A DNA stretch of 64,000 nt from positions 1 through 64,000 of the forward strand of contig MEDY01000067.1 of assembly GCA_001724265.1 (NCBI GenBank), given 5' to 3'. The stretch comes from Rhizaria sp. SCN 62-66 (taxonomy: Eukaryota). The position numbers and the translations under genes were made by a program. The notes beneath the pieces are model-generated. The model saw only the letters and a program-made list of their open reading frames with translations. It made no database searches and had not been told where the DNA came from. Positions within the stretch are counted from its first letter, which is position 1, and each line of letters begins with the position of its first letter. This document shows positions 1,031 through 64,000 of this stretch, piece by piece.

Positions 1031-4000
1031 ATGGCCACTAGGCTGACATCAGCGCGACCACGCTCTGCCATTCCAGGGCAACCTGTTGTAACGTTCGCGC
1101 CGCAGGACCAGCTTGTTTCAATTTCTGGTCCCGCACATGGTCCGCAAACAGCTGCTCCTGGCCCTCCTGTGCCTCCTATGCCAACTTCGTCTTCGTCTTC
1201 ATCCTCCTCTGCGGCAGCACCCGCTGCTTCTGCTTCTACGCGTCAGACTCCGGCGTACATGCGTGGCACGACCAGCAGCAGCCATCGCCGTCCCGCGCCT
1301 CCAGATGCTGCCCCTGCTGCTGATAGCAGTGCCCGTAACTCGCGGCCTGCCTCAGCACGTCCGACAAGCACCAACGCTGCTATGAGTAGCGCCAGTACAA
1401 CAAGAGCGGGTGATAACACACAACGGTGTTCACGCCCTGCTACTGCGCGTCCCAGTGCCATTACTGGACACGCGTGTGACGAGCCAATCAGCTCTATGTC
1501 TCTCAGTGTAACTGAACAACAACAGCAGAGCCAGCAACAGAAACAGCAACGGAAACAGCTGCCGCAGCAGCAACAGCGACCCGCTTCGTCCCGCTCCCCA
1601 GCTCGCGTTCCGTCGCACTCACCCGCGCGATCGCACTCCCCGACTTCGGCCACGCGGCCCACGTCCTCTCCAGGCCGGGACCGTGGCCGTGGGATCAGCG
1701 CCCGTGGCAACAGCGCCCGCGGCGGCCGCGCCCCGCCGCTGCCACCGCTGACGTCCCCGGCCAAGAACGCTGGAGCTGCCCAACCGGGCTCTGCGTCCGC
1801 GCGCCGCCCCCGCGGGTTACCACTGCCGCCGCCTGTGGGCAGCGCAGACCGCCGCGGTCCGCACAGCCGCTCTCCGCCCCGCACAGCCGCTGGTGGCAAC
1901 GCCATTTCTTCACCTTCGAGGTCGAACCACCACACCTCCCCTATTAACCGTAAAGGCTCCTCGCTCGCGCACAACCGCGCCGGGGCTTAGAGCGACGGCG
2001 GCTATGCCAGTGCCCGCGATCGTGACGGCGACGGCGCGCCGGGCAGCGAGTCGAATCTGCAACCTCTACCGTCGCCGCTGGAGCCGTGGCGCGAGCCGCA
2101 GCTGCTGGCGACCAACGCGCGCGGGAGCTACACCAACCACGCCGCGGATTCCGCCCGCGACGGTGGCTTGGCCAGTAGAGTATACGACCCGACTGAGCTG
2201 TACGAGCGGACGCACCCGCAGCCGACGGCGCACATCAGCGACGACGAGAACGATCCTGCCACGCCGGTCCGCGGCCGCAACGCCGGTCAGTCCCCGCCGG
2301 CGAGCTATCCGCAGCAACAGCAACACTAGCCACTGCAGCGCACCAGTCTGCCAGCCGCCGCGGCCTCATCTAACTAGTCCGCTACCGGCGCCGGTCACTC
2401 TGTCCCCGGCAGCGGCCAGTCCGACTCTGGCAGCCGCCACAGCAGCCCCGGGCGCCAGGGCCGGTCTCCGTCGGCGCGGCGCACCATGCGGCTTTCGGCG
2501 GCCGACATCCACGCAGTGCGCCGCGACAGCCTCTCGCACGTGCCGCTGAACGAGTTCGGACACGAAGTGGTGACGGACGCGGACCCGTTCGACCGGTGCG
2601 ACCTCGCCCAGCTGACCGCGACGGACCCTGCAGAGGCGGCGACGGCGGAGGCCGCGGGCAACGCGGCGGCGTCGGAGCTGGCGGCTGCCTTCCGCATCCG
2701 CGTTGCCGCCGCAATCGCGCCCTCAGCGGCGGCCGCGCAGACGCTGTCGACGACTGCGAAGCCGCCGCCGACGCCGCGGCCGGGCCGTTTCGCCACGGTG
2801 ACGCAGCAGAACGCCATCGCCGCGGCGCTCGCATCAGAGCAGCAGTGTTCGGCCGCGCACGCTGCCGCGGTCACCGCGTTGCGCGCTCTCTGCGCCGAGG
2901 CTGTCGCAGCAGCTACTACGGCCGTACGCGCGCGCGCTGTTGCAGAAGGCGAGGCGCGGGCACAGCGGCGGCGCGCGTAGCGTTTGCAGAGCGAGGCGCT
3001 CAAGCAGAGAAGGCGCGCGGGCGCTATGCAGGCCGCGCTGCTCCTCACTGCTATCGCTGCCAGGCGTGCCAAGGCTGCCGGGCCTGCTCAGACGCAAGTT
3101 GCACAGGAAACGCACTTTGGCAGCGCGGGCGCAGTCAATGGCAGCGGTGCGAGTCGTGCTATCTTGGGCTCCAACGCAAGTGCGTCTAGTTTCCAGTCTG
3201 ACATGGCGCTGCTCACAGTGACTGCGCCCGCCAGAGCCGCCGTTGCGGGTGCTGCTGGTGCGGCGGGCGATGAGGACGAGAACTACGGCCACGAGAACAT
3301 CTCGGTGCCGGATGCGCTCAACAACAGCGCCGCAAGAGGCTATCCCGCCGGCAACGGTGCGATAGACTCGCCCCGCCAAGGCGCCAATCGGGTTGGCGTC
3401 TCCCACATGCCTGCGCAAGCGCGCAGTGCCGCGACGCCAGGTCGCGTGGTCACACCGCCTCCTTCGCTGCTGTTCTCAGCGTCGGCCCGTAACACTGCAC
3501 ACCCCGATGCGCAACGCGCCGATCCCGTCGCCGCCGTTGCGCAGCTTGAGCTTGCTAATCATCAGCTCAAGTGCACTCTGGCGGCTGCGCGCGTGCGGCT
3601 GGGTACGCTTGGGTTGGAGCAAGCGCGCAAGAACGAGTACCGCATGGTGCTTGCCGCTGTCGGTGGCGCCGTTTTGCTGAACAAGATGCGCGTGCGCGGC
3701 GTGCTTTCGGGTGCTTATGGAACTCTGGCTTCTGCAATCGACGACGTCACCGGTGAGGCGCTACGCCGCAAGACTAGGACCGCCGCAGGCACAGCTTCTG
3801 CGCCTGTGAGCACCAACGGAGCCACGCAGAACACTGCGGCTGAGGTAAGGTCCCGGTCTCCCTCTCCTGTCCTCGCATCTTCATCTACGTCTGCGTCTAC
3901 TTCTGCTTCGGCGACGCGTCCCCGCTCTCCGACGCGCGGCAGATTGCCAACGCGCGCGCATTCGCCGTCGCGCGTGCCCACGCGGCTATCGGCGGCTGCA

Positions 4001-4966
4001 GTTGCAGCCACCGCGATGCCGACTCTAGCGCAGTCGCAACTGCGGCAGCTGCCGGAGGTGTCGCAATGGTTCGACACCCGTCCCGAAACGGAACATGAGC
4101 TCAAGCTCGCTCAATCGCACATCGCTCACACGCATGCACCGCCGCAGGCTGTATCTGACAAGCCTCCCCCGCGCGCGTCGTCGCCAACGTCTCCAGCAGC
4201 ACTGCTATCCAAGCCCGCACGTCGTCCCCGTGGACCGGCGCCGTCGCTACACAAAACGGCCATCGCGGTCGCTGCTGCGGCGGTGGCGGCGGCCGCTGCA
4301 GTGCGTGGCGCAACTGACGCGCGTGACACGGCTACGCGCGCGGCGGCATGGGAAGGCGCACGTGCTGCAGAGCTCAAGGAGCAGCTCCAGGCGAGCGCAG
4401 CGCGCATCGAGGCACTCGAAGCTGTTGCTGCGAAGCTACGCTCGCAGATTGATGACGGCGAATCGCGCGAGCAAGCGACGCGGCTTGAGCTAAAGCGCGT
4501 GCTCACAGCCCGCAAGAAGCCACTCGTGCCGGGCGGGTTTGGGCGCGGCCCGGTGACGGTGGCGCCGCAACCATGGTACCTCGCGACCACAGGCGGCGTG
4601 ACGTATCGAGACTACCGTGAAATGACAGGGCCGATGGAGGGCGAACCTCAGTCCGGCCGCAGGGGACGCAGGTATGACGCTGGTGTGGGGTTGGCTGCTG
4701 AGGTGCGCGAAGCGCAGCAACAGAAGCACCAACCGGTGTCACCGAAGGCACAGGAGCCACCCACTGAGTCTGCGTCAACTTCATCTGATCCTGCACCGGC
4801 AGCGCCTTCTGTTTCCGAGGCTGTGACAGCGCCTGAGGAGTCACCAAATGATCGGGGTGAGTATGCGCCTGAACACGGGGCTGCAAGTGCGAACAAGAAC
4901 TCGTACATAATAGTGATTGATGAGCCTGCTGTTATCGCCGAAGTTGCTGCAGTCGCAAGTGATTAA
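1031..4966 (+). CDS. Unknown 1311-codon protein: Pro/Ser/Arg-rich disordered N-half, predicted coiled coil in C-half, four in-frame TAG
   Basis: ORFs 1031-1990, 2486-2980 and 2984-4966 share one frame. The only interruptions are TAG at 1988, 2327, 2375 and 2978. Coding-like GC-rich sequence runs from the ATG after the AT-rich spacer to TAA 4964-4966 (followed by TGA) before the next AT-rich spacer. Confidence 0.8.
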
Positions 4967-8200: not shown

Positions 8201-11200
8201 CGTGGCCGCGAATGAACCAGCTGAGGAGCCAGCAGCCGAGCCTGCAGTAGAGCCCGCGGCCAGCGACGCCGCAGAAGGCATCGACGGCGACAGAGGGAAT
8301 AGGCCCGGAACGCCAGAGCCAGTGGCGCTGGCGGGGCCGGAGCCAGGGAACGACGGGGAGACGAGCGGCGAGTGGCCACTAGCGCCAAGGCCCGCGGCCG
8401 CGACGGCGATCGAAGACGGCTTGCGTGCACGCTCAGAACGCGGTCGCGCCTGAGATAGCGGCGAAGACAGTGGCGTCACCGAGCCCGCGGGTGCGGTGGC
8501 GAGTGATGCCGTGGACGCAGTGGCGTCGCCGGCAGCATCAGCGACGACGGAGCCACTGCTTGTAGAGGGCAACAGCGAGGGCAGCGCAGTTGCAGAGGGC
8601 GTCGAAGCAGCAGCTGCAGCAGCAGCCGCGGCGGCAGCAGCCTTACCCTTACTAGTGCCCGCCGTCGTAGTGCTCGGCGTGGCGGCGGGAGCGGCGCCGG
8701 CGCCCATCATAGACTGCACAAGAACCTGTGCCGTGTGGTACATGAGCTCGATCCGCGGCACGGCGGAGGCGACGGCAGCAGCGGCGGCGCGAGCCGGCGC
8801 GGGGCCCATCGCGACCATCGCAGTCGCAACGCCGCCTGAGCCAGTTGTCCCGGCACTGGAGCCGGAGCTCGCCGCGGGGACTGCACCCGACACTCCAGCG
8901 GCGGAACTAACAGAGAGGAGAGACAGGGAATGCATAGCGCTGCCAACGAGGCGTCCACGCACACGCGCAGCGGCAGCTCCAGCAACAGCGCCTCCAGCGG
9001 CAGCAGCGGCACGTGCGGCGGCGAGAGCATTCTTGTAGCCAGCGGCAGCGGCGCGGACGCGAGAAAGCGCGCCAACTGCAATGCGGAGCGGTGCGAGGTG
9101 CGGAGCGAGCGTTGATGCAGGCAGCGGCAGCAGCGAGCTCGCGTTGACGACGCCCGGGCCGCCGGCAGCGGCCAGAGCCTGCGCCTGCGCTTGCGCGTGT
9201 GCGTGCGAGAACCAGGCGCCGGTACCGTGCTGTGACGACAGTGCAACACCGTCTTCGTCCTCACCGTCACCTTCGCCGGTCATACCTGCAGACTTGAGAT
9301 GGGGGCCAGGGGCAGGCGCACGGCGGCGGCGCTTGGCGGGTGGCGCGGCGGCAGCGCCAGGAGCGCCAGCTTCGCCGGAGGCAGCCTCTGCTGAGCCCGC
9401 CTCAACAGGCGCCACAGCAGCCTCATCACCAGCAGTCGCACTGGAAGATGGGTCCGCGTTAGAGCTTGTTGCAGCGGGCGCGGAGGCAAGCGCGGCAGTT
9501 GAGTCCACGTTATCGCTGGAAGTCGCAGCTCCAGGAACGTCAGCCGCGACATCATCGTCCTCGATAAGTGAAATCGTGGCGGATGACTCAGCGGATGCGG
9601 GCGGCATCGGCGGAGCGGGTGGAGCTACGGCCGCGAAGGCCAGCAGGCTGCCGCTAATGCCAATCACCACGCCAGGCGCGGGCGCGTTGGTTGCGGCGGC
9701 GGTCGCAGCCGCGGGACCTGCGCCGGCGGCAACGGTGAGCAGTCCTAACAGCGCACGCGCAGTGTCCGTTGCGGGGAGTCCGTCGTTCTCATCTCCGTCC
9801 ACCGAGCCATCTCCGTTACTCGGCGACAGAGTGTTGGCAGAGGCCGCAATTGACGGGTAGGACGTCGGGTACGCTGGCGGAATAGCCAGATTCGACGGCG
9901 GCAGTGCCGTCGAAGCAGGCGCGGGCGACAGAAGCGTGCTTACAGTACTCAGGCACGCGCGCAGCGCCGCGGTCGCGGGGGCGTACGCAAGGCGCGAGGC
10001 TGCAGCGGCCGCAGACGCGGTGCGCGCGAGCAATGGGGCAAGAGCAGTGATCGTGGGCGCAGGCAGGGCCGTGGTGACCATGGTGGCGCGCAACAGCGAC
10101 GGCGGCGTGTGCCGCGAGCAGAGTGCAACGGCACGGGCCAGCGACGCAAAGCCAGGGCACGGCGCCGGCACGTGTGGCGGGCACAATGCCGCGGCAAGCG
10201 CGGGTCCAGGCGCAGGAGCGGCGGACGATGCAGCGGCAGCGGCTTTCGCGGCCGCAGTTGCACCAGGCGCGGGGTCATCAAACGCGATAGCGGACGACGC
10301 AGACGCCGCAGCAGCAGCAAGGGCAGGCGCTAACGCGGTTGCGAAGGACAGCTGCGGTGCGTTAGAGGAGGACGATGACGAGATGGGCAGCGGTGGCGGC
10401 AAAGACATGTGGCCACCCGCGATCGCGCCGTTACAGATCGGGTGGAAAACAAGCTAAAAATGGAAATATTAACAGAGGAACATAAGTTAAAAGATGTGAG
10501 ATATCAATAAAACATGTGGTCAAGATAATGATGAAGCAGATTTATAAAGTAGGGGGGTTCGTGACGTACGTTACACTTGAAGTCGGTACACTTGATGAGG
10601 AGTCCGCCAGCACGGTGGCAGACGTAACACTTCGTCGCAATCGGTGGCATCGCACCAGCACCAGCAGCAGCAGCCGCGGTCGCTGCAGCCGCTGCAGCAG
10701 CAGCGACGGAGGCCGCAGGCCCGCCAGCGAGCAGGCGCGTGAGATCCTTGAGACCAATCACAGGCTCCAGTGACAGCGGATGGGCGAAGCCGGCCTGTGC
10801 GCCTACGGCGCCCGCGGCCGCAGCCGCAGCAGTGGCAGCGGCAACAGCGGCCGCAGACGAGCCACCAGAGCCGGAGCCTGTGCCAGCGCCGGAGCCCGGC
10901 GTGCCTGCAGCGGCTGCGGCAGCCAGAGCAGCGTTTGCGGCCGCAGCAGCGGCGTCGGCAGCAATAGCGGCCTTCGCAGCAGCTCCAGGCGGCGCGCCGG
11001 GAGCGGCGGCAGCTGTCGCAGCAGCCGCGGCGGCGGTCGCAGCAGCGCTGGCGGACGCAGCGGCGTTGGCGAGGTGGTGCTGCAACGCGAGGGCTGCCGC
11101 TGAGCCAGCCTGGCCAGCGGCGCCTGCAGTGAGCGCGAGCACGACGCCACCTGCCGCAGCGCCGGAAGCGAGCGCGGCCTCGGCAACAGCGTCACCGGCA

Positions 11201-37925: not shown

Positions 37926-38183
37926 CGAAGTACAGACATGTACAACAAAGAAAACAACCGATATTTACATTAGCTTTACTTAAGAATGAAACAATGGCGT
38001 ATCCGTCAATAAACAAGCATGATTTTGATTTCACTGAGCGCAAGAATAAACTGTTCCGTTTCGATTTGTATTTACATAAATATGTACATTGTACACACTG
38101 TATCATTGTTTTACATTCACGCTGGCCCTACATTCACAAACATATGATCAAGGCATCGACAATACTGGTAGCTGCTCGCGTGT

Positions 38184-41323: not shown

Positions 41324-41677
41324 GGCAGCTGCAGCGCGGCGCACGGTCGTCAGAAGATTTTGAACAAGATATAGAGGTGTAAGAAAGGTCACTGTAAATG
41401 TATAATTAATATTTGCAGTGTATATTCTAGAAATATAGTCATCAACTACAAATAATCATTCTGTGTCGATCTATTTATGGAGATATGCTAAATCGGGTTT
41501 AGGCGCGATCGACGTGGGTGTGCGACGGCATGTAGGAGATTTTCATGAAACAAAAACATTCTCGAACTAGACAGATGTTCGTACAAGTGCGTGTCAAATA
41601 GTTGCGCCGGAATACCTTAATTATTGTGTGCATTGTTTTGAAACTACACTGTTGATACAGTTAGTCTATCTTGCCCG

Positions 41678-41696
41678 ACAGATGCCTCCTTTTCGT
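41678..41696 (+). promoter_or_regulatory. Shared upstream motif ACAGATGCCTCCTTTTCGT
   Basis: 18/19 identical to the sense-strand motif upstream of BRX1 (55527-55509). It starts 154 nt before ATG 41832. Function is inferred only. Confidence 0.45.
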
Positions 41697-41831
41697 CCAC
41701 TCCAATCTCACACCCTTGTCACGCTGATCTTTGTCACATGAACTGCCCAGCATCACCTCACATAGAAAGCAACAAATTGACATTGTTCGCGAAGACATAA
41801 GAGCTGTTAGGACCCTGTAGGCGAGTGCTTA

Positions 41832-44800: not shown

Positions 44801-47800
44801 CTTCGAGCGCTCCGCAGTGTGGTCACTGGCCTTCATGGACCCCGACGCCGCTGCTGCGGCGCTCGCGGCCGTCGCGGCAGCCAACGCGGCCGCGGCCACC
44901 GCTGCGGCCACCGCCGCCGCGGCTGCGGCGGCAGCGGGCGGCAAGGATCTGCCGATCCTCTTCTCGGGCGCCTACGCCGGTCTCGTCGACGCGCGCACCA
45001 AGGGCACTGCCGCTGCCGCAGCTGCAACAGCGTCTACGGGCAGCGCAGACAGCACCGCCGACGCTGACAACATCAGCGCCAATAACGGCACTGTGTACGG
45101 CAAGGCGGCGCGGCCCTCTGCGACTGCACCGTCGACGGCCGCGGCCGTGGCTGCTGCGGCCGCCGGTCTGGCGGCGCCGTCGGAGGCCGCGAGCGCCGGT
45201 GAGCAGCAGTTGCAGCAGCTGCATCAGCAGCAAAAGCTCCGGCGCGCGCAGCAGGCCGCTGCTTCCGCTGCCGCGATGGTCGCGGTCAGGGACTTCCTGG
45301 CCTTCACGCACCCGCAGTACGCCGCAGCCGCTGCTGCTGCCGCCGCCGCCGCGACCTCTGCGAACGCGATCGGCGCGCACAGCAGCGGCGGGCACACCCG
45401 TGGCCAGTCCGCGCTCGAGTCACTGTTTAACGACCCCCGCGGCGACGCCAGCAGCAGCGTCAGTGGCAGCAACAGCGGCGGCGTGGAGTCGGCCTCGGCC
45501 ACGCCCGCAGACGGCGCGGCCGGTTGTCCGCAGCCGGGGTCCGCGCGCGGCTCGCTGACGTCACCGTCGTCGGTGCTGCGCACTCTGGCCAGCTCCACGG
45601 CCGCGCGCCAGCCGCTGGCGTCGCTCTTCTCGCAGCTCGACGAGGAAACGCCCGGCGAAACGTCCGGCGCGCGCGGCGGCGCGGGCACCGGCGCCTCGCC
45701 CGCATCGCCGCCCTCGTTGCCGGACGCTGAGTCTGCGAGCAGGGGCGGTGCTGTTGTCGCGCGCGCGATGCCGCCGTGCCGCCTGACGCCGCCGCCGTCG
45801 ACGCACGGCCTCGCGCTGTCGCCGCTGGGCTACGTGCTTGGCGCCAAAACGCGCGTGCGCACAGCGTTCGACCACCCCGGCGCGCGCCCACGCTTCCTGC
45901 CCATGGTGTCGTGGTTTGCGGTCACTTCTGCCGACATCTGGCAGTCGGTCTTTGACATCATCGTCTCGTTCAAGCTCTTCTTGGGGCGTTTTGACCGCCG
46001 CTCCATGCAGGCCGCGCTCGCGCCAGCCGCCGCCAGCGCCGCTCACGCGCTGGTAAAGGCGCGCGTCCCGCCCGCGACGGCCGCCGCGCTCTCGCACGCC
46101 GAGAGCGCCGCCGCCGCCGCCGCGCTGGCCTCGGCGCTCGCGCTCGCGCACGGCAACGCGGCCTCGGCACGCGCGGCAGCCGTGGCGCACGCCATCTCGG
46201 CCGTCGGCACCGCGCTGCGCGCCGCGTCCTCGGCCTCGGAGCGGCTGCAGCTGCAGTCGGCCGCCACGGGCGCTGCGGCGTCGGCGCACTCGACCGCTCT
46301 CGCGCTGCTCACCGCGCGCGTCGCCGCGGCCGAAGCCGCGAGTTCGGGCCGCTAGGCCGCTGCGGTCGCGCGCGGCGCCGCCGCCGAGGCGCAGGCCGAG
46401 GCCGCGGTGCGCCGCGCGAAGGCCGCGGAGCGCAAGCAGCTCCGGCGCGCGCAAAGGGCCGAGCGCGAGGCTGCCGCCGCCAAGGACGGCGCCGCCAAGG
46501 TTGCCGCGGCGCTGCTCCAGCTCGCGCAGGCTGTCGCCGCTCCGGGTGGAAACCGCCGCGCCGAGGCCTCTGTGAAGGCTGCTGAGGCCGCGGTGGCCGC
46601 CACGACCGCCTCTGCTGCGCCGCACAGTGACACTGAGCCCAGCTCTTCGTCTGAGTCTGAAGCAGAGGCGGAGGCTAAGGCAGAGACCACTGTGGCGGCG
46701 CAGCCTGCGCCTTCGAGCACGCAGAGTCAGGGCCAGCTGCAGTCGCTGTCGCAGTCGTCGCAGCCCCAGCCGCAGCAGGGGCATGCAATGTTCCAGTCTC
46801 TGTCGCTGACGAGCCTGCCCGGGGCTGCGAGCGCCGACAGCCTGTCGTCGAGCGGTGATGCGACTGCAGCGCACATGCTGCTGGCGCCGCCCGTGGCCCC
46901 GCTGACGATGCCCATGCCTTCGCCGCCGTCGGTGACCGCGACGCCGCTCTTTGTGCCGCTGCAGACGCTGCCGCCGCTGACGCCCGCGTCGGGCCTGCCG
47001 ATCGTGGGCGTGGGCTCTGCGCAGACGCAGCCTGTGGCCTCGGTGGCGGGGATGCCGATGGGCACTGCGGGCTTCTCGCTGTCTGCGCTTTCGATGCCCT
47101 CGCTCGCCACCACCAACACTGTCGGCAGCAATCTTGCGACAGTGCCCGTCGTCGCTAATGCTGCTGTTGTCCAGAACTCGCTGCCGCTGCATGCGCCCGG
47201 GCCGCTGTTCAACATTCCCAGCACCGGCACTAGCGCCGGCACTGGCGTCAGCTCCGGTACCGGCAGCAACTCCAACCCCAACACCATCACCGGCGTGGGC
47301 GCGATCGCAGGCGCGTTGGCGAACAGCGGCAATGGCGTGGCTAGCGATACTGGTTACTCCTTGACCGCGTCTTCCGTCGCGTCGTCAGCGGCGGCAGCGG
47401 CAGCGGCGGCGGGAGCGTCGTCCGCGGCTGCGCTTGCGATGTTCGCGGCGCACATGAGCGCCACGCCCGCCGCGTCCCCCTCGCATGGCCCCGCAGTCGC
47501 GCCCGCGTCTATCCCGGCGCTGCCGTCGAACAACACTACTTCGTCGACGCTGTCTGCGCCCGCGGCCGCGGACGAGGCCGAGGCCGCGCTGGCAGCGCTG
47601 CACGCGCGCCTTGCCCAGATCGACGCCGAGGAGGCCGCCGCGGTCGCCGCCGCCTTCGCCGAGGCCGAGGCCGCTGCGGCTCAGACGCGCGGCGAGCCAT
47701 GCGCGGCCGAGGCGGCGCGGCTCGCGCAAGTTGCCGCCAAGGTCGCGTTCCGTGCTCAGACCGAGGGCGCGCTGTTCACGCACTTTGCCGAGGTTGACGA

Positions 47801-50800
47801 CGCCGAGCGCGCCGCGGCTGAGACGGCGGCCTGCGTCGACGCCGCCGCACGCGGAGAGCCCGCGCCCGCGGACGCTTTGGCCTACGCGCGCGCGGCTGCC
47901 GACGCCGCGGGCGTGGGCCGCCGGTTTGCCGACGGCGCCGAAGGCACCGTAATCGCTACGGGCCGCAGTCTCGGCGGCGGCAGCAGCGCGCGCGCCGACG
48001 AGGACAGCGCCGGCGGCGCGTGCGACTTTTGGTTCGACTGGTTCGCCGACACCGGTGACGGCGGCGACGCGACGTACACAGTGGCCTGGCTTAGTGCGCA
48101 GCCGTACCTGGACCTGGAGGTGCCGGGCCCGCTGGAGACGGCGGCGCCGCTGCCGCTGGAGCTGCTGCGCTTCCGCCGCGACCGCGAGCGCGAGGACCGG
48201 AAGCGCGGCTACCACGGCGGCATGCCCGCCACGCCCGCTGCCGTCGCCGCGGCCGCTGCGGCGCGCGCCGCGGCTGCCAAGGCCGCCGCAGAGGCGGCGC
48301 CCAACAACGCCACTCTCGCTGCGGCTGCTGCGGACGCCGCGGCTGCCGCTGCGGCGGCGGCGGAGGCCGTGCCCGCGGGTTACGGTCTCGGGCTCGGTCG
48401 GCGCAAGCTCCAGCAACAACAGCAACAACAACAGCTCCTGCAGCAGCAACAGCAACAGCAGCAGGGCGTGCGTGCCGGTACCGGTGCGAAGGCGCCCGTG
48501 CGTGCGTCGCTGACCGGCGGGCTGCTGCACCCCTGGTCGTCCTCGGCCGCGGGCGCCGCTGTCGCCGCCGCCGCGGGCGCGAGCGCCGCCGCTGTGGCGG
48601 GGCGCGGCGCGTGGGGCAGCCCCGTGCTGCCGCTGTCGACCGGCGGCCCGCGCCGCGCCCCGCTGCAGCAGCGCCAGGCACGCGCGTCAGGCCGCAGCGG
48701 CGCGCGGCGCGTGGCCTACGGCGCGACGCTCAGCGCGGGCGCCGAGGCCGCTGCGATGGCGGCGGCGGTGGGCCGCGAGCGCGAGCGCGAGCGCGAAGGC
48801 GGCGCTCTCGACGCTGAGACAGGCAATGTTTTCGTGAGCACGGCGGCGAGGCCGAGTATCGTCGCCGCAGCCGCCACGGTCACCGCGGCCGCTGCTGCCG
48901 CCGCCGCTGCGGGCGACGTCAGAGAGAGCGCAAGCGCCCGAGACGAAGACGACGAGCAGGAACAGGAGCAGGAGCAGGACGCCAGCGGCGACCAGTACCC
49001 GTCCCCCGCGCGAGACGGACCGGCTTCTCCCCGCGGCGGCCTCGCCGCGCTGCAGATGCGCCGCTCGCGGTCCTCGATCACGACGCCGCGTCCCAGCCCG
49101 CCGGCCACCTGCCGCGGCGCCGCGCTCGCCGCGCTCGCCGCCTCGCCGTGCTCTCCCTCCCCCGCAGCGGCCGACGCGAGCAGCAGTTATGTGGCGCTGG
49201 AGGCCGAGGCTCCGGCGACGCCCGTCACCGTCACCGAGACTACCAGCACGGGTGCGCAGGGCCTCTTCGCGTCTGCGCTTGCACGCGCGCCTGCCGCGGC
49301 CGCTGCGAGCGTGAAGCGCATGCTCACCGCCACGCGCAAGCCGCTGAAGCAGCTGCGCAAGCGCTCCGCGGCCGCCGTGCGCGCGGCGCGCCGTCTGTTC
49401 GCTGCGGCCGCGGGCCATCCCGCCCGCACTGGCTCCGGCGCCGGCGCCCGCATGGTGCACCCCGGCGCCGGCACCGGTGCTGACGGGGCTGCTGTCGACG
49501 CAGGCGCTGGTGATGAGGGGATGTTGCGCGAAGTGGGCGACTACCAGTACGACGAAGATGAGGAGGAAGACGAGTTCGACGAGGACGAGGACGATGACCA
49601 GCACGCTGGTGACGGCATCGACGGTGCTGGTGCTCATGCTGACGAAGCTGGTGCTATCAGTGCTGACCTGGACGCTGAGGATGCGCTCTACTCCAACGCT
49701 GACGCCGAGGCCGACGCGGATGCTGAAGCTGCGGCCGAGGCGGAGGCGGAAGCTGAGGCGCAGGATGAGCTTGAGTCGGGGTCAGAGACCGGGGATGATG
49801 ATAGCGCTTCTGGTGATGACTCAGATGGCGCCGTTCCCGCTGAGACCACGGCGGACTCCCTCGCACTGCCCGGTGGAAATGCGTCCATTCCCCATAGCGC
49901 CACGGCCCCCGCGCATACCGGCGTCGCCGTGCCCTCGGTCACGCTCACGGTCACCGCGCCTGGCGACGCCGACAACGGCAGCCACCGCCACACCGGTGAC
50001 AGCAACAGCGGTGCCGCAGTGCGCCGGTCACCGTCGCGCTCCTCGCGCGCGCGCTCGCGCACCGCCGCTGCGTCCGAGACCGTGGGCACGCCTGACGGCC
50101 GGAGGCTCCCGTCGGCTTCGCTGTCCGCGACGGGCGGGCACAAAAGTGGCAGCAGCCGGCGCAGTCACAGCATCACCAAGGGCCCTGCCGCCCTGCTGGC
50201 ACCTTCCGCCGTGACCGCCGCCGCCTCGGTCGCCACACCCTCGCGCCCCGCCGCAGGAGCACGCGCGCCCGCTGTGGGCACGTCCTCCAACGCCACGACC
50301 ACGGCGACGACGACTGTGGCGTCATCAGCGAGCCGCGTGTCGCGCCGCGACCTGCCCCACGTGCGCCTGCCGCGGCCGCGCGTGCTGGTGATCGGCGGCG
50401 ACATGGCGTACCCCACGCCCAACGCGGAGACGTTCGACGAGCGGCTGCTGCTGCCGTTCGAGTACGCGCTGCCGCCGCCCGCGTGGCGGTCCTTCGCGAG
50501 CGCGGCCGTGCGCAAGCCTGAGCTGCCGCGCGGCGTGACGCTGCGCGCCTACCACGGCCCGCAGGCCTTCGTGCTGCCGGGCAACCACGACTGGTTCGAC
50601 GGGCTCGACACGTTCGCGCGCTATTTCATGCACCGGTCCTGGTTCGCCGGCTGGCTGCTGCCGCAGACGCGGTCCTACTTCGCGCTGCGGCTGCCGTGCA
50701 AGTGGTGGATGTTTGCCGTGGACCTGTCGCTGACGCTGGACATCGACCCCGCTCAGTACCAGTTCTTCGCCGACACGATCGAGCGCGAGATGGGTCCCGA

Positions 50801-53800
50801 CGACCGCGTGATTGTGTGCACGCATGAGCCCACGTGGCTGCTGGCGTGGTACGAGGGCGCCTCGGAGCCGCGCTCGCTGCTCGAGCTCATCGAAGCCAAG
50901 CTCCGCGGCCGCTGCGTCATGCGAGTTGCTGGCGACGTGCACCACTACTGCCGCCACTCGGCTGCCGTCGCCGACCTTGCCGAAGAGCGCAAGGACGCCG
51001 CCGCCGCGCTGCTCGAGGCCACCGGCGCGCTTCCGCCGCTGCCCAGCGCCACGGCCGGCGCGACCGCTGTGGCGGCGGCGGCGGCGGCGGCGTTTCCTGA
51101 TCCCACAAGCCCGCTGTCGCAGGCGCGGGCCGTGGCCGCCGACTCCAAGACCGGCGCTGCGGGGCTCAACAAGCCCCTGCGCGGCGCACGCACGGCTGCT
51201 GCTGCCACCGCGGCCGCGGAGGCCGAGAGCGCGCGCGCGCGCAAGCTGGCGGATCGCGAGGCCGCGGCGGGCATGACGTTCCGCGGGTGGCTGCGGCGGC
51301 TGTGGCGCGCGGCCACGCTGCGTGGCTGGGGCGAGACTGACGTGCTCGAGACCGTGGGCGCGGTCGCCGACGCCGAGGCCGAGGCTGACGCGGTCGCTGG
51401 CGCCAACGGCCTCGGCGACGACGACGCTGACGGCGACGGCGACGGCGAGACGTCGCCGCTCGCTAACGCGACCATCACCAGCGAAGACGACGACAACGAT
51501 GAGGCCGACGCCGACGCGGGCTTCACACCCGTGAACCCCAAGAGCCCGACCGCGCCGCAGCAGCTGCAGCAGCAGCAGCAGCAGCAGCAGCAGAGCAAGC
51601 CGGCGCAGAGTCAAGAGGAGGCGCGCCGCGAGCGCGAGCGCACTCAGCTGCGCGGTCTGACCGGCCCCCGCCACTTAATCGTCTCAGGCGGTGGCGGCGC
51701 GTTCCTGCACCCGACGCACCCGTTCTCCGCGCCCCTGCGCGGCTACAACGGGCGCGTCTACCCGCACGCCCGGTCCTACCCGTCGGCCGAGGTGTCTCGC
51801 AAGATCACCTTCGGCAACCTCATCAAATTCCGAAAGAAGAACTGGCGCTTCGACGTGCTCGGTGGCGTCATGTACTTCGTGCTCATTATCTCCGTGCTGC
51901 CGCTGTGCGGGCTGTCGGACTACCTGCACGCGCCGCCGCTGTCGTTCATCCCCACATTCTCGGCCTCGGTGCTGACGTCGGCGACGTCGACTGCGCTCAA
52001 GCACTCGCTCAGCGTCATCAAGACCTTCACCACCGAGGCGCCCAACGCCGCCGCCGCCGCTGCGGCCGCGAGCCCGGCTGGCGTTGCTGGAAGTGGCATG
52101 CCGCCGCTGATGGCCACGCCCGCGTCCACTGCGTCGTCGGCCCCCACTGTGGGTGCGAACGAGGTCCCGGAGATGCCGACGTACATGTCCATGCTCAACG
52201 CCTCCTGCCCCGCGTTCCCCCCGTTCCTCTTCTCGCCGGGCCCGCACGCCGACGCAGCAGTCGCGAACGCGGAGATTGGCAACAGTGGGTTTGGCGTGGC
52301 CGCGTCGGCGCTCGCACTACAGCGCACGTCCCCGCTCTCTCTGGTCCCCGCGCCGTCCCCGGCCGTGCCTGCGTGGGCCCTGCTTGCGCCCCCGCTGACC
52401 TTGTTGTACTACGTGATCCTGCTGTGCGCGCGCCACGTCACCGTCGTTGTCGCCATCGTCGCCTCCATGGTCGTCAACGGCGGCGCGTCGCTCATCGCGC
52501 TCGCGTTCTTTTCCGTCATCATCTTCTGCTTCTGCCCCTCGTCGCTGCCGTGGCGCCGCCGCGCGCCGCTGGCGGCCGCGCACTTGCTGTTGCACGTGTT
52601 CTTCGCGATCACGCTGGCCATGATCTTCGAGGTCGCGCTCGAGGTCTCGGCCAAGGCTGGCCTCGTCGGCAAGGCAGGGCTGCACGCGCTGTACGCCGCG
52701 TACGCGGAGCAGGAAGCGATGCACTTCCCCGACCCTAACGACATCCGCGGCACCATCGCCTCGCTCACGTTCGGACTCTACCCGGCGTGCATCCGCTGGG
52801 CCATGACACTCTTCGACGTGCTCGAGTACTCGGCCTTCTTTCGCGCGCAGGTCTGCCAGGCGTGCGGCAACTTCGCGTCCTTTTCGAGCCTTGCGACGTT
52901 GGCGTACTACGCGTCATTCTTCGTCTACTTCTGGGTTCTCGTCACGCCCGTCTTCGCTTTCATCATCGGCTGTTACCTATACGTCGCGCTTAATTACTGC
53001 AACGTGCACTGGGACGAAGGTTTCTCGTCGCTGCGCATCTCGCACTTCAAATCCTTCCTGCGCTGCCGCATCACACCGCAAGGCGACCTGCACGTTTTCT
53101 GCGTCGGCATTGACCGCGTGCCCAAGCTTTGGCGCCCCGAGCCGCGCTGGCGCCTGCTGCCGCGCCAGATTGCCGCCATCTTCTCGCGCCGCGCCACCGC
53201 CGCCGCAGCAGCAGCAGCCGCGGCCGCGGGGCGCGGGCAGGCAGGCGCCGGCAGCGGCGCTGGCGGCAGCTGCCCCGTTGCGGCCGCCTCCGCCGTCGTC
53301 GCCGCGCAGGCGCAGGCCAAGGCCAAGGCGAGCCGGCTGCAGCAGCTGCGCGTGATGGCCTCGCGCTTCATCGACGTCACCTCCACGGTTACCGTCAAGG
53401 CGCTGGGCGCGATTGCGGGCGTGGCCGTCGCGCCGCGCCGCTCGCCCGCCGCGGCCAGCGCAGCAGCAGCCGCAGCCGCAGCCGCCGCGGCGACCGCAGC
53501 AAGAGCCGCGGCGCAGCAAGAGCCGCAGAGCGCTGAGGCCGCGCGCGCCGAGGCCGCGGCTGCCGCGGTGGACGCGCTGGCGCTATCAAGCCTGTTCGAC
53601 GACGCGCACCTGCTGGCGCACCCCGAGTGGGGCGCCAGCGACGCGGCCTGGTTGCGGCTCAGCTTCCGCGACGCGCACCCGTCGCGCTGGCGGCCTGATG
53701 AGCTGTTCCGCCCGCGCATCGTCGACTACTTCTGCGTGCGCGCCGCGGACCTGCCCTCGTCACAGGGCACTGCCGCGGCCGCGCTCTCGCAGGGACAGCA

Positions 53801-53834
53801 ACAGGCGCCACAGAGGTTCACGGCTGCTAAGTGA
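41832..53834 (+). CDS. Multi-pass membrane calcineurin-like metallophosphoesterase (~4000 aa), one in-frame TAG at 46353
   Basis: ORFs 41832-46355 and 46407-53834 are in the same frame, separated only by TAG. Metallophosphoesterase motifs: FADTGDGG (48042), IGGDMAYP (50391), PGNHDWFDG (50577), THEP, AGDVHHY, VSGGGGAFLHPTH. Hydrophobic TM-like blocks flank the catalytic part. Ends at TGA. Confidence 0.9.
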
Positions 53835-54357: not shown

Positions 54358-55350
54358 TTACGCGAACATGTCCTCGAGCTCGTCCTCCTTGAGGGGGTTC
54401 TCCTCAATGTGGGCAGCGCGGGCGCGCTTGGCACGCTCGCGGACGACCATGGTGTCCTGCGAGCGGCGCTTGAGCAGCGCGCGCTTGATGTTGGGCGACA
54501 CGTAGTCGGGGTTCTCCCAGAGAACGGCGCCGCGGAAGGAGCCGGCGAAGATCTTGACGGGGGTCAGCACAAAGCGGGGGCCAATCTCCACCAGCACGGG
54601 CTCACCCTCCTTCTCCGTGCCGTGGTTGGCGTCATAGGCGATCTGGTAGTTGCGGAACCAGATGCGGCCGTTGATGAAGAAGAAAGAGAAGATGTGGTCC
54701 ACGAAGGGCTTCGTCTTGGGGTGGCCCTTGGGGGACGCGAAGCACTGCGACAGTAACTCGCGCATCAGCACAGAGTGCGGGGCGTCCGCAAACGAGCGGT
54801 CGAAGTGCATCACGGGGCGGGAGCCCTTGAGGCAGTTACCGGTAAGCTTAACCTCGGACATGGTGTGGATGTTCTGCACCAGGAACTTGATCGACGGGCC
54901 CGTGGGCGCGCGCGCGGCCCACATGTACAGGTCCTTGAACTTGCGCGCCTCGAAGAACAGGCAGTTGTTGCAGTTCTTCATGTCGGCAACGTCGTTCACC
55001 TCCTCCATGTTGTCTGTGAGAGAGGAGCAGCAGAGAGCGTGGGTGGAAAGAAAGGTCGCAAAGCAGAGGAAGTGAGATTTAGAAAGGATGCTGGAGAGTG
55101 CATAGAGCAAGAATACATATTAGAAATACAGCAGAAAGATAATATAGTATATGAAAAACGTACTCTTGCCATCGAACTTAGAGTCCTTGCGGCTGTGGGG
55201 GAGAAGGTCGCGGATATCCGTCAGCAGGTGGCGGTCGCGGTGCACAATGCCACGGGAGGCGAAAACAAGAGTGCGCTGCTTGTTCAGATAGTTGCCCACG
55301 TCCTTGTGGGCCTCACGGGCCTCCTTAGTGGCTTGAATACGCTTGAACAT
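54358..55350 (-). CDS. BRX1: Ribosome biogenesis protein BRX1/BRIX1 (Brix domain), 280 aa; exons 55350-55164 and 55013-54358
   Basis: Contains NKQRTLVFASRGI..RHLL.D...LLPHSRKDSK, KNCNNCLFFEARK, PTGPSIKF.VQNIHT..E.KLTGNCLKGSRP, KPFVDH, IWFRNYQI and LVEIGPRFVL..KIF.GSF.G..LWENP.YVSPN. Ends at TAA. Confidence 0.97.
55014..55163 (-). other. Spliceosomal intron, 150 nt, phase 1
   Basis: GTACGT...CTCACAG. Splicing joins the two BRX1 ORFs in frame (FDGK-N-NMEEVN). Confidence 0.92.
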
Positions 55351-55508: not shown

Positions 55509-55527
55509 ACGAAAAGGAGGAATCTGT
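55509..55527 (-). promoter_or_regulatory. Shared upstream motif ACAGATTCCTCCTTTTCGT
   Basis: It starts 177 nt upstream of the BRX1 ATG on the sense strand. It matches 41678-41696 and partly 178-167 upstream of beta-tubulin. Confidence 0.45.
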
Positions 55528-55741
55528 TCGAGGTCATTGTGGACTCTACATAGGGTGTTATGATACTGCCGTATTTATTTGTGACTCTACATAGTTCTTT
55601 GTTTTCTATATTTAACCCACATATCGCCTGACGGTTGTTTGTCCTCTGTTCAGCCTCTGGAAGATCTCACCTCATGCCTCCTCGTTTACCCTCTTTTTGC
55701 CCCTTGCTTGTTGCCTTTTCCCCACAGTGTAGCCGCATAAA

Positions 55742-56566
55742 ATGGCTCGCCAATTCCTTTTGGTGATTCTTTCTGTGGTCGCGATGCTCGCGGTTGGCGC
55801 TCTGGCCAACGTCGAGTACGCTGAGGCCGAGCTCGTCGAGACGGGCTCGCTGCTCGACCTCGCCAACCTCGAGGAGCCCGCCGTGGCTGCCCTCGTCGAG
55901 ATCGGTACCGAGCTCGAGGCTGAGGCCGAGGCCGAGGCCGAGGCTGAGGCTGATGCTGAGCTTGATCTCGAGGCTGAGGCTGAGGCCGATGCCGAGCTCG
56001 ACGCCGAGATGGACGCTGAGCTTGATGCTGAGCTCGACGCTGAGGCTGACGCCGAGGCTGACTTTGACGCTGACGCTGACGCCGACGCCGAGGTTGACGT
56101 CGCCGCCGAGGCCGAGGCCAGTACGGAGACCGAGGTCGACGCCGAGGCCAACGCCGACGCCGAGGCCCAGGCTGAGATCTTCATCGCGGGCCAGGTCGAC
56201 GTCGACATCGATGCCGAGGTCGAGGCCGAGATTGAGGCCGACATGGAGGCCGTCGCCGAGGCCCAGGTTGACGCTGAGGCTGAGGCCGAGGCTGGCGTTG
56301 ATGCTGAGGCCGAGACCGAGGTCGACGCTGAGGCCGAGGCCGAGTCTGAGGAGCCTTCTTTCCTCGAGTCCGAGATGTACCCCGACCGCCTCCCCGCGTT
56401 CAATCCCTACGCGGGCTACTCGGACGCCGACTCCCCGATCCAGAACGTCGCACTCGAGCCCACGTACCCGCGCACGCTGCCCTTTGCCACGCACCCCAAC
56501 CCCATCGCTGTGGCCACCGCCGCGCCCGCGCCCGCCGTGCCCGCCGCCGCCCCCATCAAGGTTTAA
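55742..56566 (+). CDS. Secreted highly acidic (E/D)A-repeat protein, 274 aa
   Basis: Signal-peptide-like N-terminus [22 protein letters not shown], then about 185 aa of EA/DA repeats and a Pro/Tyr-rich C-terminus. Strongly biased codons (GAG, GCC, GCT, GAC). AAAATG start context, TAA stop. Confidence 0.88.
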
Positions 56567-57515
56567 GCAATCAAGCGAACGAACGAGCGAGAGAGCATCG
56601 ATCTCTGCGAAGCGACCCAGTGACATGGTCACCGAAACGCGACGCGTCGTGCGATGGTAAGTGTGGATTGGAAGTGTGAATGGAGGATGACAACGACGGA
56701 CTGAGTGTCCGACTGTGAAAGCACAGTTGACGAAATGAGATTATGATGATGGGACGTGTGAGATGACAACGACGGCTTACGCTTGCGTATGTGCTCGTCT
56801 GTGCTTGCACGAGCACTTTGTATACAAAAGATATTCTCATACTCTGCGCTTTGGAATCGTTTTATCCTGACCACTGTGATCTCTTTCCTGAAATCATCCT
56901 ATGAAATGTATGCTGTATGCTGAACTGCATTGACATGAGAACTATATTTTAAGACATCTGAAAAGCATCGTTATAATAGCAATACAGGTCGAGTTAAAGA
57001 AAGTGACTTTGTATTCTGCCTGTCTCTCGCTGCGCACCCACCTCTGGGCAGCGAACCGCGGGCCGGGATAAAGATAAACGTATAGATTAGCTTAGTTTAG
57101 AAGTTGTTGTGTTTTTTTGTTCTTAATGGTGATGATGTTTTGCTCAATAGATATAATAATTTGCGAAATCTTCGCCAACTCGCTCGCTTGTCGCACTTAG
57201 CTCCACATAAACACGCACTTGCATGACACGATAGAACGGCTTGCAGCTCCTTGTTACACGATGCACTGCTGTCCCTGTTGGTCCGATGACTGCTGGATTG
57301 CTGCTGACGCACTTGCTAATGCTGTAACTGTGCCCCGTAATAATATTAATAACAGGTGGGACACATCAAAGCATAGCAGTGAAGCACTATCGCATCCCTC
57401 CGTCACCCCGCCTTCTTTATGATAGCGCGGACGGGTGCATGTTTGTACCTCCACAATCTTGTATCATGCGTGCATGCGTGCATGCGTGTCATGTGTGCGT
57501 TGTCAGTATGCGCGT

Positions 57516-61086: not shown

Positions 61087-64000
61087 ATGGCGCCAGGTCC
61101 GCACGAGTCTTGCAGACCGCGCTGCCATTGGAGACCCCCTGCTTCTCTCCATCCTAAATCAGCGGGTCGACACACTTACCTGCATTACTGGCTCTCAGCC
61201 CCATTCGTCGTGGCCATGTTATGTACGTTTCTATGGCTGGCCTGGCTCCTGCCGCCTGCATTTGCGCTGTCATCAGAGCAGGCCGCGCCACGTATCGCGC
61301 ACCCGCCAAATCAAGTGCACCTCGACAAGCGCTTTGGCGTCGCTGTGGAGCCCGGTCTGGAGCTCTTCACGGGCGACGTCATCGTGCTCACGGTCGAGGA
61401 CGCAGCCGTGTACGACTCGGAGTCCGTGTTCCGCGTGTGGGGGCTTGACCGGCTCGGTCAGATCACTTGCCAAGACCCAGCAGTCGAGGCTGCCGCGCTA
61501 GGCGCCAACTACAACGGCGGCACTGGCGCCGATTGGTCCCCGTCTCTAGCCAACATGTTCGTCGTGAGCGTCATCAGCGGCCGGCTGGGCGAGCTCTCGC
61601 TGTCGCCCGTCGTCGCCTTCCCCAACTCACCGAAGTACATCACTCCGCAGCCGCTCTCCCCGCGGTCCGGCGTCGTGCATGACATCGGCGGCGCGGGCTG
61701 GGAGGCCGGGGACGACGTGCTGCGCGTAGCGTCGTTCATCCCGCTGGCGGACCCGATGTACGCGTACGGCACGCACTTCAAGTACTTAGAAGACGGCACG
61801 CAGTACGGATACACGGACGCGCCCGCGCACGACTACGGTTTTACGTCATACTCAAAAGGTTACTCGGGCTCCAGTGCCAGCTACAGCTCAAGCTCGAGCT
61901 CTTCTAGCACGTCGGAGTACGACAGCGGGCGGCTGGCAATCCGCGGGAGCTCGTTCCACGACTTCTGCCGCTGCGACCCCACAACGGGGTACGTCAAGTG
62001 TCGGCACTTGGGTGTGGAGACAATGATGTACCCCACCCCAGAAGTCGTGGGCACGGCGTGGAGCTGGTTCAAAGTGACCAAGATCCCGCACACGGTGGTG
62101 CGGCGCATGCTCGAGAACTACCAGGCAGCCGTGTCCAACGGACTGCCGCGGTCGTTCCTGCTCTTCTCGTCGCTGCCCTTCACGGACCGCATTGACGCGG
62201 TGCACTATCACGGCGCGGAGGCGCAGCTCTCGGTACGCAACGCAACATGAAATAACTTGCAACTATACACATATTACTCCTGTGGTGAACTCCGTGTGCT
62301 ATTCAAGTTGCTCACATCGTTGTTATCGTGTATCTTACCTTATTCGCTCAGTCGCGCCGCGCGTTCCTGGGCCAAAGTCGTGTCGTCACGCGCGGTACGC
62401 GTCTCGAGCAGCAAAGCACGCTTGTTATTGAGAACACCATCACAGACGCAACCACTTTCTCGGTCGACGTGGGTTTCGCTGAAGAAGCACAAATAATGTA
62501 CGTTGATGCTGCTACGCGCATGATAACCTACAGACGTATGACTTGTTGTCACAAAAGAAATATCAATCGCATATCAAACGCAATAGCCAAACTTTCACAT
62601 TATTTTTCGATTCGCCATCTCCTATTTTTCAGAATCGACAACGTTCCTGGTGTTATCCTCCCCGACATCATCGTTCCGGTCCCGCCTGTGGTTCCAAGCG
62701 AGCAAGGTGAGCTGCCCACGCTTGTCGACACTGTCGCGGAGAAACAAGAGGCGCAATCGGTCGCATTAGAGGAGCTCAAAAGTCCTTATGCACACCCACT
62801 TGGCACACTTGATCATGACGATACTCACAACGCCATCAACGATGAAAATGACTCTGCTGATAAAAATGACCGCAGCAAGTTCGATGATAACGGTATTCGC
62901 CGCGCACGCCGGCGCGGCAACAAAGACAGTGCGAATGACTATGGCAGTGACCCAAACAGCAACAGCAAAAACAGCGCTGCTCGTAGCGGCGGCGCAAAGC
63001 CCACCCCGATTGCAAGCACGTTTAAGCGCGCACCAGCCGTTTTTGCTGCGGAGCGCACGCGCCAGGCAATGGCGGTGCTGGAGCACAAGCAGGAAGAAAG
63101 ACGCGAACGTGCCCAGCGCAAACAGTAGCAACGCAGCGCGCGGGGGCGCGGACGCAGGCGCGGAGGTGGACGGGGACGTGGCGGACGACGAGGACGCAGT
63201 GGGGGTGGAAAGACAACAGAGCCCAGCAACGTAGAGAATGCTGTTTCCGATAACGCATCTCCGTTGGACATCTCTCCCACATCCCTATTACGCCTTGCCA
63301 ACAAACTTTCGACGCTATCCGACTTAGCCCCAACTACAGACAAAAACTCAAACTCCCTAGATGTTCCCGCAGATAGCGTCGTCGCGCACAACACAGGTGT
63401 TACTGGTGCAACTGACGACGATGAAACGGCACCCGTGCTGCCAAGCAGCTGGACGCGACGTGGACTGAGTCCTGCTGCTCTTGATGCACTTGCTGCAGTT
63501 GGCGTTCACGGCGACGCGATTGCGCGCACAAATGTCCGTACAATCGGCAGCGAGCATCGCCACATTGTAGTGGCAAAGGACTCAAGTGTGCGCCGTGCGC
63601 CAACTGTGGGCGCTGGACGCAGCGGCGTGCGCGGCACCCTTGGCGTAACTAAGGCATCCGCAATTGCTGCAATCAGCAAACGTGTGAGCACTTTGTCTGT
63701 TGGCAACAGCGATGGTATCGACAGCGATGATGACGATAACAATGACGACGATGTAAGCTCTGATGACAACGATATCGACAACGTTGTATTTACTTCGCCG
63801 CTTCTCTCGAAGACGTTAATGCAACCGCAACCACGTTTTGCTCCGCTCTCGGTGACCGGCATCCCACTGACTAAGACTACAGGAAAGCCCGGCAGCAGTG
63901 ACTCCAACAAAGTGACTGTTGCGCCAGCGCCCGCGCCGCTGGTGTGGAGCGAGCGCAACGATATCGAGTTCACAGGCGGCGTTAACACTCCGGAGGCGCG
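61087..64000 (+). CDS. Unknown protein, 3'-truncated; exons ~61087(or 61216)-62232, 62352-62497, 62633->64000; possible signal peptide; one in-frame TAG at 63126
   Basis: ORF 61087-62250 joins ORF 62328-63128 through intron 62233-62351. After CAG TAG CAA the same frame stays open with no stop to the window end (about 290 codons). The hydrophobic stretch MLCTFLWLAWLLPPAFA starts at ATG 61216. Confidence 0.7.
62233..62351 (+). other. Spliceosomal intron, 119 nt, phase 0
   Basis: GTACGC...TCGCTCAG, AT-rich, contains the TGA that ends ORF 61087-62250. Splicing restores the frame. Confidence 0.8.
62498..62632 (+). other. Probable spliceosomal intron, 135 nt, phase 2, in frame and stop-free
   Basis: GTACGT...CTATTTTTCAG, AT-rich, in the same size class as the other introns. 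Confidence 0.7.

Follow-up and report, generated by a model that had tools for sequence, protein, structure and literature searches.

The stretch of DNA analysed here, the first 64,000 nucleotides of contig MEDY01000067.1 (the whole of which we call the window), belongs to the nuclear genome of an uncultured eukaryote with a guanine-plus-cytosine (GC) content of about 70%, and six TAG codons were found inside otherwise uninterrupted protein-coding frames of three of its genes. The reading that we favour is that UAG is translated in this organism while UAA and UGA stop, and we give it a probability of roughly 0.55. The strongest of the six sites is the TAG at position 46353, which, as judged from comparison with related proteins, separates the membrane part from the enzyme part of a metallophosphoesterase family that is single-chain in its relatives. 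As this TAG lies inside a single-chain family, the production of at least one conserved protein would require the ribosome to pass it. One 64-kb window is nevertheless insufficient to prove a changed genetic code. DNA runs from bioreactors and wastewater were found to contain the stretch 41000-50999, and an activated-sludge polyA RNA library (X4) contains part of it.

The integrity of the reading frames was assessed with a codon table derived from 15,307 clean window codons, and segments were scored per codon against coding and off-frame windows. Exons in the window have a GC content of about 65-79%, and the spaces between genes are AT-rich. Across 11 genes and 18,527 codons, no in-frame TAA or TGA and no frameshift was found, and the internal TAGs amount to six, at 1988, 2327, 2375, 2978, 46353 and 63126. 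The two off-frames of the training codons contain 67 TAA, 409 TGA and 67 TAG; frames that were open by chance would therefore break mainly at TGA. In the 150 nt past each internal TAG the GC content is 0.63-0.83, and the following 100 in-frame codons contain neither TAA nor TGA. Past each of the 10 TAA or TGA terminators of the window, by contrast, GC falls to 0.27-0.55 over 150 nt and the next 100 codons hold between two and eight further TAA or TGA. All 10 of these terminators (seven TAA and three TGA) are situated at a boundary from GC-rich to AT-rich sequence, and the sole terminal TAG is backed by a TGA as the next codon, although 11 gene ends are too small a sample from which to judge the use of TAG as a terminator. 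The six internal TAGs sit in real, intact, coding-like frames.

Other TAGs in the window proved to be of a different kind. The TAG at 31902 is preceded by a 29-codon segment, starting from the ATG at 31813, that scores -0.485 per codon, which is off-frame-like and lower than any of 524 coding windows; this TAG probably belongs to a 5' leader or a short upstream open reading frame (ORF) and is no internal codon, the gene starting at the ATG at 31927. Two additional in-frame TAGs, at 10456 and 41808, were attributed respectively to a 3' splice site (10454-10456, in the intron of the gene at 5240-30570, and hence no codon) and to leader sequence. The TAG at 38189, which is followed by TGA at the end of a gene for an S49 peptidase, fits a stop and a last sense codon equally well and decides nothing. 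The initial annotation had listed eight TAGs, all of which were found in place, and had counted seven of them as in-frame codons of four genes; six in three genes were retained, the leader-like score removing the one at 31902. For the eighth, at 38189, the adjacent TGA was confirmed, while its value as evidence was lost to the equally good fit of the standard code. Its statements that internal TAA and TGA are absent and that no gene depends on TAG as a stop were borne out, no frameshift was found (the frame breaks are all in-phase introns), and its placement of the TAA and TGA gene ends at AT-rich boundaries holds for every such terminator, although one of the three TGAs, at 62248, had been overlooked.

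The gene that harbours the TAG at 46353 has no TAA or TGA in the 4000 codons of 41832-53831, as opposed to 18-82 in the other frames. The 144 codons that follow the TAG (46356-46787) contain no ATG and score 0.486 per codon, a value as high as which was reached by none of 202 off-frame windows. A HMMER search with the part ahead of the TAG returned 120 relatives at E<=0.001, 16 of them at E<=1e-10, including an orchid protein of 1020 aa that is named as a calcineurin-like phosphoesterase (P0010) and one Tetraselmis protein; a word-index search with this same N-terminal part returned itself only. Eight long relatives of the N-terminal part (P0005 and P0014 being left out) were scanned for the Metallophos domain, which was found farther along the same chain in six of them, P0010 and the Tetraselmis protein included. 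BLASTP comparison of the read-through protein with the orchid protein P0010 gave a colinear alignment, in which five blocks ahead of the TAG correspond to residues 42-367 of P0010, and the catalytic motifs and the C-terminal membrane part, located after the TAG, to residues 386-991. The order of the blocks is likewise kept in P0005, a metagenome relative of 3103 aa encoded in one open frame. The 2,492 codons past the TAG are open, and the catalytic block is 58% identical to that of P0005. Downstream of the TAG, the differences between the window and the X4 contigs, which possibly derive from another strain or species, comprise 15 synonymous and seven nonsynonymous changes among the 22 listed (40 of 63 rows).

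The metallophosphoesterase belongs to a plant- or algal-type family of about 1000 aa in orchids, and reaches 4000 aa here through low-complexity inserts; some 750 residues of insert lie between catalytic motifs I and II, and P0005 is expanded in a similar way. Named matches obtained with the C-terminal part in the word-index search came from mosses, a lycophyte and a fern (52-54% identity) and from an oomycete (48%). A close GC-rich relative, P0143, shows 54% identity, low-complexity parts included; its 4.6-kb JGI contig covers the C-terminus only and stops short of the TAG region. A search of JGI metagenome contigs for the C-terminal part gave 596 pattern matches, none of which was confirmed, and the same was true for all 600 pattern matches among contigs of prokaryote genomes, where mis-binned copies might have been present. 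A metagenome scan with P0005 led to L001, a eukaryotic contig of 292,505 bp with a GC content of 0.53 (locus 1-29309), which carries the nearest long relative of the gene, accompanied by genes for MAP65, a class II aminoacyl-tRNA synthetase, a protein kinase and an epimerase. On L001, TAG ends three of six long ORFs, and the profile of the class II aminoacyl-tRNA synthetase ends at position 306 of 308 right ahead of a TAG. L001 uses TAG as an ordinary terminator; at 34-40% identity and with no shared synteny, it is too distant to bear on the code of the window. The X4 contigs are about 7% divergent from the window at 33983-34106 and 50606-50825, nearly all of the differences falling at third codon positions, which places a sister strain or species in another plant, where it is probably expressed.

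The remaining five internal TAGs are found in two genes that matched no Pfam family. Frame 0 of gene 1 (1031-4963) contains no TAA or TGA in 1311 codons, the other five frames containing 11-37 each, and between roughly 1817 and 3800 it scores above the other frames. With four TAGs, frame 0 resembles the two off-frames of the gene, which have three and six, while for TAA and TGA together the counts are 0 versus 20 and 37. The 112 codons past the TAG at 1988 (1991-2326) include no ATG and score 0.180 per codon, and none of 264 off-frame windows scored as high. No relative of the read-through product of gene 1 was found among 8000 scored candidates of 728-2317 aa, drawn from an index saturated by low-complexity words, and in the ESM Atlas the ORF at 3026-4963 obtained scores of 0.81 only, which is chance level. 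The gene that starts near 62496 and runs off the end of the window has no TAA or TGA in 501 codons (62496-63998; 6-28 in the other frames), and the score of the 290 codons past its TAG at 63126 was equalled by none of 92 off-frame windows.

The reproducibility of the sequence was examined by read comparison over 31000-50999, a range outside which 1988, 2327, 2375 and 63126 lie. Contigs of data set X1, possibly the source sample, with a depth of 27-33, show no difference from the window in 31000-39169 and 40105-48400, including 31902, 38189 and 46353, and at these three sites they show no variant at or above 10%. Contigs from X2 and X3, which look like one data set, match 31902 and 38189 without difference. 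The ORFs ended by the TAG at 46353 (P0004) and by the TAG at 2978 (P0138), as well as the following one (P0139), were each found on four contigs (Logan, ENA). It is in the light of these data that we consider an artefact of gene models or assembly, by which the TAGs would be true stops between same-frame genes, parts of hidden GC-rich introns or consensus errors, to be highly improbable. The uncertain start of the 62496 gene and the lack of a homologue that would fix the model of gene 1 leave some room for it, but the TAG sites have a coding signal on both sides and, with the GC values given above, are unlike the AT-rich gene ends; single-chain relatives span 46353; the X1 contigs agree; and TAG-bounded ORFs recur. 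An intronic origin of the TAGs was considered and rejected: all introns identified in the window begin with GTACGT, a motif that is found neither in gene 1 nor near 46353 and that comes closest to 63126 at 62498, and the coding signal continues.

A number of observations weigh against the translation of UAG as an established feature of this genome. The six internal TAGs face 81 CAA and 459 CAG codons, so that TAG makes up 1.1% (6/546) of the glutamine (Gln)-type codons; the other eight genes, including a giant gene of 8,352 codons, are free of TAG over 12,761 codons, and the use of UAG is confined to three of 11 genes. In two ciliates in which UAG encodes Gln, the corresponding share is 18.5-31.8% of Gln codons, with UAG in about 80% of genes, according to the sections of the report used here (PMC11687900). 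The TAG-TGA end of the S49 peptidase gene is accounted for by the standard code. None of the six TAGs falls in an alignable column, all being in low-complexity sequence and the one at 46353 in a linker between blocks. A tRNA scan and an Rfam scan of the 64-kb window found nothing. Among the matches listed for 31000-50999, the X2 and X3 contigs reach none of the six key sites, and no X4 RNA contig lies over a TAG. Furthermore, the restriction to TAG is itself less telling than it appears: from the codon usage of the window, one-step nonsense paths lead to TAG in 1753 cases, to TGA in 510 and to TAA in 422, which gives TAG a share of 65%, or 74% with transitions only, and six TAGs out of six would arise under random nonsense mutation with p ~0.08-0.16. 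This bias of GC3-rich genes (GC-rich at third codon positions) towards TAG weakens the TAG-only argument, and the contention in the initial annotation that random nonsense mutation would also have produced TGA and TAA is accordingly a weak one. Its central claim, that UAG is read as an amino acid, draws strength from the TAG at 46353, which splits a conserved single-chain family, and is held back by the low and patchy usage just described.

That usage does have a regularity. Counts of CAA and TAG are 24 and 4 in gene 1, 6 and 1 in the 62634 gene, 14 and 1 in the 41832 gene and 24 and 0 in the giant gene, and the TAG counts per gene are within Poisson scatter of a common ratio of 6:81 to CAA. 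The spread of TAG tracks that of CAA, as that of a rare synonymous Gln codon would.

The TAG bias of single-step changes is what would be expected if the TAGs were recent nonsense mutations and the three genes young pseudogenes, or truncated alleles fixed in the population, the TAG-only pattern being a product of GC3-rich codon usage; in agreement with this, the TAG-bearing stretches are all fast-evolving and of low complexity, and gene 1 is an orphan. We nonetheless find this account decidedly unlikely. Single changes that create a stop make up 2685 of 137,763 (2%), so that six stops would be accompanied by hundreds of other changes; neither a TAA or TGA nor any frameshift was seen. At usual indel rates, six nonsense mutations would come with several frameshifts. 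Coding scores continue past every internal TAG; past the one at 46353 the codons are open and conserved and the listed variation is mostly synonymous; and the X1 contigs show no polymorphism above the threshold at the three sites that they cover.

The low usage is also compatible with a UAG that is still a stop and merely leaky, near-cognate tRNAs such as tRNA-Gln(CUG) reading through it with no dedicated suppressor and the TAGs being acceptable only where the protein is disordered or little expressed. The frequency of TAG, 0.32 per 1000 in-frame codons compared with some 2.2 per 1000 when the three TAG-bearing genes are read off-frame, is indicative of a strong yet incomplete avoidance, and is far under that of fixed reassignments as described in the sections consulted (PMC11687900); the TAGs occur in low-complexity contexts only, and the TAG-TGA end of the S49 peptidase gene is a back-up stop of the type expected where termination leaks. 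Against this, the four TAGs in gene 1 would multiply the losses, a readthrough of 30% per site giving less than 1% full-length product, and a conserved enzyme would owe its catalytic half to readthrough. We consider leaky termination to be unlikely.

TAG-only interruptions of intact genes would result as well from adenosine-to-inosine (A-to-I) editing of the mRNA, which would turn UAG into UIG, read as UGG for tryptophan (Trp), and such interruptions are a feature shared with the restorative editing of filamentous ascomycetes (PMC11156358, PMC10776026). As set out in the sections of these reports that were used, fungal editing favours U at position -1 and hairpin loops, and so often affects UAG (PMC11156358), and 71 pseudogenes of this kind were described in Fusarium graminearum (PMC10776026). 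In the window, the A lies within a predicted hairpin loop for five of the six TAGs, but the rate is similar in controls, at 50 of 83 for off-frame TAGs and 73 of 150 for in-frame CAGs. Trp is rare in the proteins concerned, gene 1 having four TGG in 1311 codons, and none of the listed X4 differences, which come from pieces that do not span the sites, is an A>G change at a TAG. Ascomycete editing differs further, so far as these sources describe it, in acting at the RNA level, in a stage-specific manner and in Sordariomycete-type fungi only (PMC11156358, PMC10776026), and nothing links an intron-poor organism of about 70% GC to the Sordariomycetes. Editing is in our view very unlikely.

We therefore return to the translation of UAG as the best explanation. 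Under this proposal, UAG would be a rare, non-preferred sense codon; where a gene has weak codon bias or low complexity it would occur about as often as other disfavoured codons do, and elsewhere it would be missing. It would be decoded by a dedicated tRNA(CUA), the recognition of UAG by the release factor eRF1 would be weakened, and the translation of UAG might be genome-wide in scope. As no TAG falls in an alignable column, no residue was assigned. Gln, although no more than a guess, is the most likely one, because CAG is the commonest neighbour at one transition, Q-rich runs surround two of the sites and most precedents involve Gln. The sparse use of TAG suggests that the reassignment is young or still ambiguous. 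Tentatively, and with more doubt than belief, one may picture UAG capture in its early phase, in a free-living eukaryote that is extremely GC-rich and no ciliate: UAG would have been lost as a terminator as UAA and UGA took over and would be newly reappearing as a rare sense codon, probably for Gln by CAG-to-TAG change, confined so far to weakly constrained low-complexity proteins. Such an organism would be a living intermediate in the reassignment of a stop codon.

The coordinates of the features discussed are collected below.

Table 1. Genes, introns and TAG codons of the 64-kb window (asterisks in the sequence contexts mark the in-frame TAG)
Feature	Position	Strand	Remarks
Beta-tubulin, first 27 codons	window start, gene start at 83	-	partial
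Gene 1, orphan low-complexity protein, 1311 codons	1031-4966	+	TAA 4964-4966; four in-frame TAGs
TAG 1 of gene 1	1988-1990	+	context RAGA*SDGG
TAG 2 of gene 1	2327-2329	+	context QQQQH*PLQ
TAG 3 of gene 1	2375-2377	+	context ASSN*SATG
TAG 4 of gene 1	2978-2980	+	context RRRA*RLQS
Giant PHD-finger gene	5240-30570	-	8,352 codons, one 116-nt intron
Intron GTACGT...TAG, AT-rich, 116 nt	10454-10569	-	in gene 5240-30570; ORFs join in phase 0
TAG	31902-31904	+	upstream of probable start ATG 31927, gene 31927-37925
S49 peptidase gene	38184-41323	-	SohB-type N-terminal domain (PF08496)
TAG-TGA tandem	38184-38189	-	end of S49 peptidase gene, GC-to-AT boundary
Intron GTACGT...AG, AT-rich, 131 nt	38989-39119	-	in S49 peptidase gene
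4000-residue membrane protein, calcineurin-like metallophosphoesterase domain	41832-53834	+	TGA 53832-53834; Pfam Metallophos
In-frame TAG, residue 1508/4000	46353-46355	+	between membrane block 1352-1399 and catalytic motif 2063-2099
Intron GTACGT...AG, AT-rich, 150 nt	55014-55163	-	in BRX1 gene
Gene, no known family	62496-64000, off window end	+	start uncertain: ATG 62496, or intron 62498-62632
In-frame TAG	63126-63128	+	context QRKQ*QRSARGRG, then RGG-rich stretch

All three frame breaks in the window are AT-rich introns of 116-150 nt that begin with exactly GTACGT, end in AG and join their exons in phase. The assignments in the S49 peptidase and BRX1 genes are in keeping with protein comparison: positions 3-35 of the Pfam S49 profile lie ahead of the intron and positions 42-151 past it, and exon 2 of the BRX1 gene matches BRX1 starting at about residue 72-103. 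A fourth candidate that begins with GTACGT, at 62498-62632 (+), has a length that is a multiple of three and is open in frame. The giant gene is devoid of TAG, TAA and TGA in frame, and its product is for the most part a low-complexity sequence rich in Ala, Ser and Pro with several PHD-type zinc fingers (PF13831, PF13832, PF13771). The S49 peptidase has a low-complexity N-terminal extension of about 630 residues ahead of its SohB-type domain. Further genes in the window include those for BRX1 and mitochondrial uL23 and several orphans; the atlas matches of the uL23 protein, in Chordata and Basidiomycota clusters, were too coarse to place the organism. Between the start of the beta-tubulin gene (83, -) and gene 1, the spacer contains a run of 17 C at 721-737 (+) in AT-rich surroundings. 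Long ORFs on opposite strands overlap at 55667-56740; the one on the plus strand (55733-56566) is Glu-rich with a signal-peptide-like start, and the one on the minus strand (55667-56740) has weak beta-barrel-type Pfam matches.

Reassignments of UAG alone are few, and break the usual coupling of UAA and UAG. The proposed code of the window is most directly comparable to that of the fornicate Iotanema spirale, in which UAG encodes Gln and UAA and UGA are stops. As reported in the sections cited here, it is likewise a non-ciliate with UAG alone as sense and UAA as stop, for which a tRNA(CUA) and a weakened recognition of UAG by eRF1 were proposed. In Iotanema, however, housekeeping genes such as RPB1 have UAG in hyperconserved columns, and many alignments served to deduce the residue, whereas the present case consists of six codons in unalignable low-complexity sequence at about 70% GC (PMC5304391). 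A second non-ciliate change of UAG alone is that of the rhizarian exLh, where the residue, derived from conserved columns, is leucine (Leu), and which demonstrates that Gln is not the sole option (PMC5304391, same sections). In contrast to exLh, nothing in the window favours Leu, TTG being rare (eight in gene 1).

Among ciliates, Hartmannula sinica and Trochilia petrani read UAG as Gln and three TARA phyllopharyngean metagenome-assembled genomes read it as Leu; in the part of the report drawn on, UAG makes up 18.5-31.8% of Gln codons or 6.5-10% of Leu codons in these organisms and is contained in 78-91% of their genes, and suppressor tRNA genes were found (PMC11687900). The window shares with them the reassignment of UAG alone, a preference for UAA as the stop and the discovery by metagenome mining (PMC11687900), but differs in its UAG usage of 1.1% of Gln-type codons, internal to three of 11 genes. 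Its organism is no ciliate, having long intron-poor genes and a GC content of about 70% on a contig of at least 124 kb. Codes in which a codon is both stop and sense are known from Condylostoma, karyorelicts and, for UAA, Blastocrithidia (PMC4967479, 10.1101/2022.04.12.488043, PMC11687900). As far as the portions of these sources used here go, the S49 peptidase gene with its terminal TAG-TGA would be compatible with a codon that is sense inside genes and may still act as a stop near their 3' end, but these codes concern UAA or all three stops together, with codons that occur commonly within genes, while in the window TAG alone is involved and is rare.

A search of the literature, which did not extend to supplementary lists of screened taxa, turned up no description of UAG being used as sense in a wastewater eukaryote or a GC-rich non-ciliate. 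Standard gene callers fragment the genes concerned, and fragments of them (P0004, P0138 and P0139) are contained in a public protein collection; the annotation of bins of this organism would therefore be wrong. As a type, the UAG-only code is already known from Iotanema, exLh and the phyllopharyngeans, and the window would add to these a very GC-rich non-ciliate lineage. If the proposal is true, this would be a further independent break of the link between UAA and UAG, in a non-ciliate of about 70% GC from engineered wastewater systems, and a UAG that makes up some 1% of its synonymous set would show the first steps of a change from stop to sense, a stage that is debated by codon capture and ambiguous intermediate models and has seldom been observed.

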